Shown one piece after another: positions 11,636-29,650 of a DNA stretch of 64,000 nucleotides. The translations under genes were made by a program, and so were the position numbers. The notes below the pieces were generated by a model that saw only the letters and a program-made list of their open reading frames with translations, ran no database searches and was not told where the DNA came from. The stretch comes from Escherichia coli (GTDB lineage Bacteria; Pseudomonadota; Gammaproteobacteria; Enterobacterales; Enterobacteriaceae). Numbering within the stretch: position 1 is the first letter of the stretch; each line of letters begins with the position of its first letter. The stretch lies in assembly GCF_003334765.1 (NCBI RefSeq), contig NZ_QOWT01000004.1, one strand, 5' to 3'.

Positions 11636-11981
11636 AGCGGCCTGGCACACGCGTTTGATGGAAGACGGCGTTCAGGCAATGCGCGATTATCTTGCCGGAC
11701 TGGATATCGCTTCGCCAGAGCATCAGGTTCTGATGAACGTAACAGCAAAAAGCGAGGTCGCTCCGTCAATTATCAAAGAAAATCTCTCATTACACTTAAC
11801 TCATACGGTGAAATGGACTGAATCTCTCGATACATTTCTGAATATGCCAACCCCGGTAGCTTTCCTTGAAATAAGTAATAAGCCCTATTTGGGGAATATG
11901 TTAAATGATTTTGCTGGCGTGGATCAGCAACGAGTTATGCATTGTCGTAAAGCATTTAGTGATGCAAAGGTATTCAAATGA
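11622..11981 (+). pseudogene. ymdE: ymdE: FabD-like (malonyl-CoA:ACP transacylase C-terminal-like) gene fragment
   Basis: 119-codon ORF with a GTG start overlapping the dgcT stop; it resembles only the C-terminal portion of acyltransferases (VKWTESLDTF region) and lacks the catalytic N-terminal half. Annotated as a pseudogene/remnant in K-12 as far as I recall. Confidence 0.55.
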
Positions 11982-12964: not shown

Positions 12965-13095
12965 GGAAGTGATAGGAAGTGACCAGATAATACATATATG
13001 TTCTGTACTCTCTTGCGCATTTTGATTGTTGACTGAGTAACCAGACAGTTGATGTGCACGATTTCCCCTCGCCCTAACAGACGTGGGCGGGGGCA

Positions 13096-13719
13096 CCCGG
13101 TGTGTGCAATATACGAAAAAAAAGCCCGTACTTTCGTACGAGCTCTTCTTTAAATATGGCGGTGAGGGGGGGATTGACTCGCTTCGCTCGCCCTGCGGGC
13201 AGCCCGCTCACTGCGTTCACGGTCTGTCCAACTGGCTGTCGCCAGTTGTCGAACCCCGGTCGGGGCTTCTCATCCCCCCGGTGTGTGCAATATACGAAAA
13301 AAAAGCCCGTACTTTCGTACGAGCTCTTCTTTAAATATGGCGGTGAGGGGGGGATTGACTCGCTTCGCTCGCCCTGCGGGCAGCCCGCTCACTGCGTTCA
13401 CGGTCTGTCCAACTGGCTGTCGCCAGTTGTCGAACCCCGGTCGGGGCTTCTCATCCCCCCGGTGTGTGCAATATACGAAAAAAAAGCCCGTACTTTCGTA
13501 CGAGCTCTTCTTTAAATATGGCGGTGAGGGGGGGATTGACTCGCTTCGCTCGCCCTGCGGGCAGCCCGCTCACTGCGTTCACGGTCTGTCCAACTGGCTG
13601 TCGCCAGTTGTCGAACCCCGGTCGGGGCTTCTCATCCCCCCGGTGTGTGCAATATACGAAAAAAAAGCCCGTACTTTCGTACGAGCTCTTCTTTAAATAT
13701 GGCGGTGAGGGGGGGATTC
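13096..13719. repeat. Tandem direct repeat array, ~3.4 copies of a 181-bp unit, each carrying the 3'-terminal ~19 nt of serX plus the serX terminator
   Basis: Identical units begin at 13101, 13282, 13463 and 13644 (period 181). Each contains tatggcggtgagggggggatt (the serX 3' end on the minus strand) and the hairpin gcccgtactttcgtacgagc with an A8 tract; the last copy merges into the authentic tRNA. The track shows the same ORF repeated at 181-bp spacing. Confidence 0.92.
13658..13688 (-). terminator. serX intrinsic terminator (proximal copy)
   Basis: On the minus strand: stem gagcucguac / guacgggcuc (one G-U pair) followed by U8, 12 nt after the tRNA 3' end. Identical copies occur in each upstream repeat unit. 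Confidence 0.7.
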
Positions 13720-13787
13720 GAACCCCCGATACGTTGCCGTATACACACTTTCCAGGCGTGCTCCTTCAGCCACTCGGACACCTCACC
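13700..13787 (-). tRNA. serX: tRNA-Ser (long variable arm, class II)
   Basis: Reverse complement reads GGTGAGGTGTCCGAGTGGCTGAAGGAGCACGCCTGGAAAGTGTGTATACGGCAACGTATCGGGGGTTCGAATCCCCCCCTCACCGCCA: 88 nt with D-loop, TPsiC arm GGTTCGAATCC and a CCA end. Anticodon assignment (GGA) is from memory. Confidence 0.9.
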
Positions 13788-13981
13788 AAATTGTCGTTCC
13801 TGTCTTGCTGGAACGGGCGCTAATTTAGGGAAATCATGACCTGAGGTCAACAAACTTTTTGAAAAAATCGCGCGTTTATTCAAACTTCAATCAATGTGTG
13901 GTTTTAATAAGCGAAATCTGCTTTTTTTGCCACCGACCACGGATTTGTTATGCTGGTGGCCTTTGTAGATCATAATGATAA

Positions 13982-19331: not shown

Positions 19332-20085
19332 GATGAAACCCCGCTTTTTTTATTGATCGCACACCTGACAGCTGCCTCTAAAATAGAAGCACCAGAAGTA
19401 CTGACAGATGTTGCACTGCTGTGTGTAGTAATAAATCAGCCCTAAATGGGTAAAATATAAAACTAATGGATTACATCTGATTTCAATCTAGCCATTACAA
19501 ATCTTAAATCAAGTGTTAAACATGTAACTAAATGTAACTCGTTATATTAAAATGTTAACCTTAAGGTTTTATTAAGTTTAGAAATGATAGAAAAGTTGTA
19601 CATTTGGTTTTTATTGCACAATTTTAAAAAATCATACAAATGGTGATAACTTACTAATAATGCATATAAAAAATATTTCGGTGTAGTCCTTTCGTCATGT
19701 AAAACGTTCTTGTTTTTTCTCCACACCTCCGTGGACAATTTTTTACTGCAAAAAGACGAGGTTTGTCACGGCTTGTGCGCAAGACATATCGCAGCAATCA
19801 GCGACGGGCAAGAAGAATGACTGTCTGGTGCTTTTTGATAGCGGAAAGCGGAGATTTAAAAGAAAACAAAATATTTTTTTGCGTAGATAACAGCGTATTT
19901 ACGTGGGTTTTAATACTTTGGTATGAACTAAAAAAGAAAAATACAACGCGCGGGTGAGTTATTAAAAATATTTCCGCAGACATACTTTCCATCGTAACGC
20001 AGCGTTAACAAAATACAGGTTGCGTTAACAACCAAGTTGAAATGATTTAATTTCTTAAATGTACGACCAGGTCCAGGGTGACAAC
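19332..20085. promoter_or_regulatory. csgD-csgB divergent intergenic regulatory region (754 bp, AT-rich)
   Basis: Unusually long, AT-rich, curvature-prone non-coding region between the divergent csgDEFG and csgBAC operons. Known from the literature as a binding hub (OmpR, CpxR, IHF, H-NS, RpoS-dependent promoters); individual sites were not mapped here. Confidence 0.8.
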
Positions 20086-29550: not shown

Positions 29551-29650
29551 TGCCTGATGCGCTACGCTTATCAGGCCTACATCGTTCCTGCAATTTATTG
29601 ATTTTGCAAGACTTTGTGGGTCGGATAAGGCGTTCACGCCGCATCCGGCA
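29551..29650. repeat. REP/BIME cluster in the opgH-yceK intergenic region
   Basis: Palindromic units tgcctgatgcgctacgcttatcaggcctac and gtcggataaggcgttcacgccgcatccggca. Confidence 0.7.

Follow-up and report, generated by a model that had tools for sequence, protein, structure and literature searches.

A copy-number-variable tandem array downstream of serX in Escherichia coli and its relation to tRNA-linked repeats and RtT RNA

We analyzed a window of 64,000 nucleotides of Escherichia coli DNA (contig NZ_QOWT01000004.1 of assembly GCF_003334765.1), in which serX is followed by a tandem array of 181-bp repeats. The best overall explanation, and one that is very probably correct, is that the array is the set of serX-linked tRNA-linked repeats (TLRs) named rsX1-4, which belong to the RtT RNA family (RF00391) and are called "RtT sRNA" in RefSeq. 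The array is a catalogued RNA module that is conserved, structured, and variable in copy number, and the preliminary description of this DNA was a correct observation of an element that already had a name. The array itself is thus ordinary: it is catalogued, it has an annotation in RefSeq, and a strain from which it was deleted has been published. What interest is left lies in the class of tRNA-linked repeats, to which no function has been assigned since 1978. In practical terms, the locus is a hot spot where assemblies and copy numbers differ, and this includes the laboratory strains of K-12.

Anatomy and identity of the array

The features of the region are as follows, in the order of transcription of serX and with one further Rfam match at the end:

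13822..13850, minus strand: promoter-like site TTGACC-17-TAAATT upstream of serX (consensus match only)
13700..13787, minus strand: serX, tRNA-Ser(GGA) (ARAGORN; Rfam tRNA model, 53.8 bits; annotated as serX in NC_000913.3)
13700-13718, minus strand: last 19 nt of serX, the first and authentic copy of the repeated 3' end
13096..13718, minus strand: whole array, 3.4 perfect 181-bp copies, probably the serX-linked TLRs (EcoGene rsX1-4; Tandem Repeats Finder)
13659..13687, minus strand: terminator T1, with a 9-bp stem, a GAAA loop, and U8, 12 nt past the CCA of serX (sequence; ViennaRNA, -13.5 kcal/mol)
13519..13655, minus strand: unit 1 (RtT/TLR RNA), with its structured core at 13519-13643 and its pseudo tRNA 3' end at 13519-13537 (Rfam RF00391, 46.3 bits; PGAP "RtT sRNA" in an identical genome)
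13478..13506, minus strand: terminator T2, identical to T1 (identical repeat copy)
13338..13474, minus strand: unit 2 (RtT/TLR RNA), with its pseudo 3' end at 13338-13356 (Rfam RF00391, 46.3 bits)
13297..13325, minus strand: terminator T3, identical to T1 (identical repeat copy)
13157..13293, minus strand: unit 3 (RtT/TLR RNA), with its pseudo 3' end at 13157-13175 and its core at 13157-13281 (Rfam RF00391, 46.3 bits)
13096..13156, minus strand: distal partial unit, made up of the 12-nt trailer, T4 as its terminator (13116-13144), and another 20 nt as far as ...CACACACCGGG, the end of the repeat
3259-3452, minus strand: Ysr251, another Rfam match (189 bits, above the gathering score)

Tandem Repeats Finder reports 13096-13718 as a single array with a period of 181, 3.4 copies, 100% matches, and 0 indels. 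The preliminary description had proposed about 3.4 head-to-tail units of 181 bp, and when the units are aligned to each other and to serX, the copies are indeed perfect; its unit starts (13101, 13282, and so on) are those of the same repeat in another phase. Such a run of 3.5 identical 181-bp copies far exceeds chance.

The sequence AATCCCCCCCTCACCGCCA occurs four times on the minus strand, with ends at 13700 (in the gene), 13519, 13338, and 13157. After each copy come UAUUUAAAGAAG, a hairpin of AGCUCGUAC-GAAA-GUACGGGCU (-13.5 kcal/mol according to ViennaRNA), and eight U. On the serX strand, every unit therefore has what had been claimed for it, which is the 19-nt 3' end of serX, then 12 nt, and then an identical hairpin with U8. 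The copy that had been singled out as the authentic gene end is just that, the last 19 nt of serX (13700-13718), and the second, T-arm-like fragment that had been described is also real: the 5' half of the T-arm of serX, GGGGUUCGA, recurs in each unit. Along the serX strand, the order is serX and then three times UAUUUAAAGAAG, the hairpin, U8, 17 further nt, a ~105-nt body, and AAUCCCCCCCUCACCGCCA. Past the third unit, there is one further trailer and terminator and then CGUAUAUUGCACACACCGGG, which is the end of the repeat.

The 181-bp unit has three parts. The first is the ~105-nt body, which starts with a run of G and folds as a closing stem plus four hairpins. The second is the last 19 nt of serX, whose run of C forms the 3' strand of the closing stem and leaves CUCACCGCCA single-stranded. 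The third is an AU-rich trailer with an intrinsic terminator, and these are identical to those after serX itself. The 3' ends of all three units are identical to the 3' end of serX (19/19 nt), and a 78-bp stretch is common to the real gene end and to every unit. The units begin 45 nt past the CCA end of serX and are on the same strand, and a consensus scan identified no promoter-like site between the gene and the units.

The terminator hairpin (13116-13144 and the three other copies) is close to a palindrome, and CTTCTTT comes after it on the plus strand. The consensus terminator scan listed the hairpin on the plus strand only, so it might also have a weak effect on transcripts from ycdU; the minus-strand hairpin and its U8 come from reading the sequence and from ViennaRNA. 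The plus strand also has open reading frames of 83-137 amino acids across the repeats (13102-13515, 13283-13696, and 13083-13334). As 181 is not divisible by 3, these read the unit in all three of its frames, and we rejected them as genes: they are artefacts of the repeat.

Several lines of evidence identify the units as RtT RNAs. Each of the three units matches RF00391 over its full length (model positions 1-130) with a score of 46.3 bits, which is just over the gathering score of 45, so the margin is small. In a genome that is 100% identical over the region, PGAP annotated three "RtT sRNA" features at exactly the positions of the units. (In the curated MG1655 record, the gap that contains the array is unannotated.) The units also have the architecture of RtT, with a closing stem of a 5' G-rich strand and a tRNA-derived 3' strand around hairpins, and RNAalifold recovers it for Ser-type as well as Tyr-type units. 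The family description and the PGAP note state that RtT derives from the tyrT transcript, but these units follow serX. PGAP labels units behind serX in other genomes as "rtT sRNA, processed from tyrT transcript"; at serX, this is a carried-over label and is misleading. Since the model score lies at the threshold, PGAP marks only some units (for instance, 2 of 4 in DH5alpha) and is inconsistent between genomes.

The array can also be tied to the published TLRs. [quoted passage not shown] According to the account in PMC8144298, TLRs were first described by Egan & Landy in 1978, and the catalogue of Rudd (1999) lists 22 of them at ten K-12 loci; an early claim that the tyrT element had a role in starvation was later retracted (PMC8144298). 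The serX units are immediately downstream of a tRNA gene, co-oriented with it, and in the same operon. In the strain table of Stenum et al. 2021, the "Delta22 TLRs" strain includes Delta(rsX1-4) 1096182-1096779 (PMC8144298). These are old MG1655 coordinates, and with the +777 offset to NC_000913.3, which we verified against the tyrT coordinates in the same table, they correspond to 13094-13691 of the window. The published coordinates of rsX1-4 cover the array, so it is already a named element and is among the 22 catalogued TLRs of K-12. In the literature that we searched, we found no paper with serX and RtT together or with serX and "tandem repeat." To our knowledge, no study has been devoted to the Ser-type subfamily alone.

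The window is K-12-like but is not MG1655. There are three single-base differences between them, at 13253, 13293, and 13976. The first two are in the distal unit, where MG1655 has two SNPs (the units in the window are all identical), and the third is upstream of ghrA. The match between the window and MG1655 breaks at 11635-11639, where IS3D ends in MG1655; this would be explained if IS3D is absent between dgcT and ymdE in the window. Besides Ysr251, other Rfam matches above the gathering score are ES056 (19387-19478, minus strand), ES036/CssrF (29573-29615, minus strand), the PyrC leader (38744-38793, minus strand), the rne 5' UTR element (60528-60864, minus strand), and SraB (62725-62893, plus strand). 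These appear to be ordinary known E. coli features.

Conserved RNA fold and tRNA-derived ends

The units behind tRNA-Ser fold as a closing stem and four hairpins (RNAalifold). In an alignment of 27 Ser-type sequences, 97.7% of the cells are paired, and 13 pairs have changes on both sides, compared to 4.8 ± 1.3 in column shuffles; none of 500 shuffles reached 13. When the register was slid by 1-3 columns as a control, there were 1-5 double-change pairs. The support from covariation is located in hairpins 3-5; neither the closing stem nor hairpin 2 varies among Ser-type units. The core of the copy in the window (unit 3) has a predicted folding energy of -59.4 kcal/mol (z = -2.8), and Tyr-type units have a similar architecture. 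Overall, the Ser-type units are under clear selection for their RNA fold across genera, yet they are gained and lost freely within E. coli.

Although the closing stem is invariant within the Ser type, it switches with the tRNA between the Ser and Tyr types: it is GGGGAAGG/CCUUCCCC at tyrT and GGGGGG/CCCCCC at serX. Similarly, the first hairpin has CUU/AAG at tyrT and CCC/GGG at serX, and the serX and tyrT units each close with the last 19 nt of their own tRNA. The similarity between them extends beyond these tRNA-derived 19 nt, as they have a 5' domain in common, namely GGGG(AA)GGAUGAGAAGC(UU/CC)CGACC(AA/GG)GGUUCGAC plus a block of CCCG.AGGGCGA.

A coding function for the unit is so improbable that we give it virtually no weight. 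Each unit would encode a small basic peptide related to Tpr, the "protamine-like protein" that is annotated in the tyrT repeat. The start, ATGAGAAGC, is conserved, and the unit in the window has an 18-codon reading frame (MRSPDRGSTTGDSQLDRP) whose first 9 residues resemble Tpr. However, in 35 of 55 Tyr-type units, a stop ends this frame after 5 codons; in Ser-type units, its length ranges from 17 to 39 codons, with changes of frame from indels in loops; and the ATG lies inside the closing stem without a spaced ribosome-binding site. The long reading frames of the plus strand (137 amino acids) do not help, as they cross all three frames of a unit whose length is not a multiple of 3. Since the tpr-like frame at the conserved AUG is not itself conserved, the constraint is on the RNA and not on a protein.

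The preliminary description had offered, as one alternative, that the units are decayed copies (pseudo-tRNAs) of a former tandem array of tRNA-Ser genes. This concerns evolutionary origin rather than present function, and we consider it unlikely. Two pieces of each unit, GGGGUUCGA and the last 19 nt, do derive from the tRNA; both pieces switch to the sequence of tRNA-Tyr in the tyrT units; at tyrT, one unit sits between two real tRNA genes; and a closing stem with four hairpins loosely resembles a cloverleaf. But the units are not recognizable as tRNAs: in the 64-kb window, ARAGORN detected serX alone and no unit, and the Rfam tRNA model has no match on the units at E ≤ 1. Furthermore, the T-arm half is at the 5' side of the unit and not beside the 3' end, as decay in place would predict. 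As only two short pieces per unit are derived from the tRNA, an origin from a decayed array is unsupported, and the body, which is conserved with compensatory changes, is being maintained and is not decaying.

Island integration, copy number, and distribution

The main proposal of the preliminary description was that the units are scars, or decoy att sites, from repeated integrase-mediated insertion and excision at the attB of serX. We consider this to be extremely improbable. The description had named serX as an island site, and this is so, as OI-48 is found there in O157 (PMC3064760). In O157, an island with an integrase lies between the ycdU-side terminator and serX, and the junction keeps only TGGCGGTGAGGGGG, which is the 14-bp direct repeat that was published for OI-43/OI-48 (PMC3064760). 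This att core is present in every unit. However, integration leaves only a 14-bp repeat and the island (PMC3064760), so that 14 bp are duplicated and not 181, and an att duplication is a direct repeat that flanks DNA in which an integrase is, or once was, present. The units are instead head-to-tail, and there is neither foreign DNA nor an integrase between them. The absence of an integrase by the array had already been pointed out; the neighbors are ycdU and ghrA. Homologous units with the same body are found behind tRNA-Tyr, where they have a tRNA-Tyr end.

We also compared island att sequences to the repeat core: the 14-bp core is in the units, but no island was found at a pseudo-end. A probe for such a junction (a unit body and its 19-nt end joined to the end of the island) matched 0 of 5,426 genomes at 80% coverage or more, whereas many of these genomes contain the junction with the true tRNA gene at 100% identity. 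In E. coli STK78-E, which is K-12-like, an island with an integrase is inserted at serX (locus L129, 4793-6001), with an ISEcp1 transposase a few kb inside, and two full, intact units remain on the ycdU side, between the integrase end of the island and ycdU. Because no island of the tested family lies in any pseudo-end, the scar proposal fails, and for the OI-48/SRL island family we rejected the units both as products of integration and as secondary att sites (on the basis of the O157 and STK78-E junctions and the probe). The preliminary description had named correspondence to a known structured RNA element as evidence against its proposal, and this is largely what we find, as the unit belongs to the RtT/TLR family.

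All 5,426 complete E. coli genomes match part of the region, and a query with the flanks only joins both flanks in 2,066 of them. In a spread sample of 23 of these 2,066 genomes, we inferred the number of units from the spacing of the flanks: 6 genomes have no units, 4 have one, 6 have two, 2 have three, and 5 have four. In the zero-unit allele, serX is followed by the trailer, the terminator, and then the unique flank, so that the 80-bp stretch of the distal partial unit directly follows serX. Even the sublines of K-12 differ, with 3 units in MG1655 and AG100 and 4 in DH5alpha, ME8067, EV36, HE_100, and TC6. The predicted instability of the array is therefore real (0-4 units in E. coli and 3 or 4 in K-12 sublines), and so is its predicted proneness to changes in homopolymers, as the lengths of the A-run and the C-run vary between genomes. 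Instability is the expected behavior of perfect 181-bp repeats. Because the units are identical and have 78 bp in common with the gene end, we infer that the array changes size by unequal homologous recombination or by replication slippage. Concerted evolution, by which the pseudo-ends stay identical to serX, would be a by-product. Many natural strains do without the array, as does the Delta22 TLR strain in the laboratory, and zero-unit alleles are common, so any function is non-essential.

In E. coli S1-ESP-02-A, which lacks ymdE-ycdU, the stop codon of dgcT abuts a truncated unit (locus L127, 5995-6100). Only the first ~45 nt of the body are present, followed by the terminator and serX. This suggests that a deletion took the rest of an older array plus flanking DNA.

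To describe the distribution of the family, we scanned species-representative genomes with TGAGAANCNNCGACNNNGGTTCG and obtained at least 120 loci; since this seed is the units' own 5' domain, only RtT-type units could be found. Among the 188 matches listed, the nearest upstream co-oriented tRNA is Tyr(GTA) for 80, Ser(GGA) for 65, and Ser(GCT) for 7 (all of these in Pseudoalteromonas). The other 36 of the 188 have no tRNA within 1.5 kb and are chance matches or cut contigs. In most cases among the matches listed, the last 19 nt of the element have 0-1 mismatch to its own tRNA, and variant ends of tRNA-Tyr are mirrored in their elements. Ser-type units are found behind tRNA-Ser(GGA) in at least 11 genera of enterobacteria: Escherichia, Citrobacter, Enterobacter, Kosakonia, Pluralibacter, Phytobacter, Atlantibacter, Franconibacter, Superficieibacter, Pseudenterobacter, and Pseudescherichia.

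Four Pseudoalteromonas loci (L050 at 7404-7940, L007, L072, and L118) have an RtT-like 5' domain, GAAGG.GGGUGAGAACCCUCGACCAGGGUUCGA, in 1-2 copies with a period of ~174, behind tRNA-Ser(GCT) and its terminator. The G-rich strand and the T-arm half of these copies match tRNA-Ser(GCT), but their 3' end is degenerate (CCCAUCCCCACG...) and is not a copy of the tRNA end. The RtT family appears to reach past Enterobacterales in a modified form.

Termination, expression, and comparison with known systems

A hairpin with a run of T follows 34 of 38 Ser-type units, and its stems have compensatory changes between genera. In contrast, we found a hairpin terminator after 0 of 62 Tyr-type units, whose trailers are rich in C (0.30) and poor in G (0.12). 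Termination at tyrT is Rho-dependent, and the C-rich, G-poor trailers of the Tyr type fit this.

Because most Ser-type units (34/38) come with their own terminator, and because ycdU is convergent on the array, we considered whether the array acts as a DNA or termination signal, with four serial terminators providing a fail-safe stop for the strong tRNA promoter before ycdU. This seems very unlikely. Zero-unit alleles are common and already have one terminator, many strains have no ycdU there, and the Tyr-type units have the same conserved body without any hairpin terminator (0/62). A stack of terminators also leaves the compensatory changes in the body unexplained.

We instead prefer to view the serX units as RtT-type RNAs that would be expressed by read-through and would receive tRNA-type processing at their 3' ends. 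A consensus scan found no promoter inside the units (this is weak evidence), which would leave the putative promoter at 13822-13850 as the sole candidate for the entire transcription unit of serX and the repeats, and the units would be made only upon read-through of the terminators. Specifically, polymerase from the serX promoter would read through T1 and then T2 and T3, and the units would be transcribed. Since the units end like a tRNA, they would be expected to be substrates for the nucleases of tRNA 3'-end maturation: RNase E might cut in the AU-rich trailer, exonucleolytic trimming to the CCA might follow, and discrete RNAs of ~125-175 nt might be released. This scenario draws mainly on the 5S-linked TLRs, and its RNase E step is by analogy. 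Read-through may be rare, as T1 looks strong (a 9-bp stem and U8).

It is conceivable, if doubtful, that RtT-type units are functional RNAs that act in trans or by titration and are tied to the operons of class II tRNAs. If so, then the amount of these RNAs would be set by read-through of the terminators, and the copy number (0-4) would be a tunable dose. Possible roles would be to report the flux from the tRNA promoter or to occupy factors that process or bind tRNA 3' ends.

Finally, we compare the serX units to four known systems. For OI-43/OI-48 and the SRL island, which have a P4-family integrase and are found at serW/serX, the 14-bp repeats also duplicate the 3' end of the same tRNA gene, and the 14-bp core lies inside the 19 nt of each serX unit. 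However, these islands duplicate 14 bp only, with one copy on each side of an island of ~89 kb that contains the integrase, and there is no structured 181-bp tandem array.

The sRNA sponge 3'ETS-leuZ (Lalaouna et al. 2015, as cited in PMC8144298) is freed by RNase E from the 3' trailer of a tRNA precursor. Unlike the rsX units, 3'ETS-leuZ is not a repeat and does not include a copied tRNA 3' end; its known function is to pair with RyhB and RybB.

The 5S-linked TLRs rrA, rrB, and rrF, which lie between T1 and T2 of rrnA/B/D (PMC8144298), are in the same class of TLR as the serX units. They are closed by 18 bp that copy the 3' end of the gene upstream, as the serX units are by their 19 nt. They are located between two terminators, are made by read-through of T1, and are then processed (PMC8144298). 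Their 3' end maps beside the repeated sequence, and Stenum et al. 2021 proposed that recognition by RNase E is the purpose of the repeat (PMC8144298). In contrast to the serX units, they are single units and not arrays, and the sequences of their bodies are unlike. Also, CsrA and Hfq bind to rrA, rrB, and rrF; for the tRNA-linked TLRs, by contrast, the prediction of CsrA binders in PMC8144298 gave scores below 0.01.

The TLRs of tyrT/tyrV (rtT RNA or rttR, RF00391) resemble the serX array in being tandem units that directly follow a co-oriented class II tRNA gene, and they have the 5' domain, the closing stem, and the 19-nt end from their own tRNA as in the serX units. The rtT RNA of tyrT is co-transcribed with the upstream gene and is processed to a discrete RNA. 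The tyrT operon, where RtT was defined, has four elements and a 178-bp repeat in 3.1 copies; these elements score 133-137 bits on RF00391, as compared to 46 bits for the serX units. The middle hairpins of the two types differ, the pseudo-end at serX is that of tRNA-Ser, and every serX unit has an intrinsic terminator, whereas the C-rich, G-poor trailers at tyrT have no hairpin.
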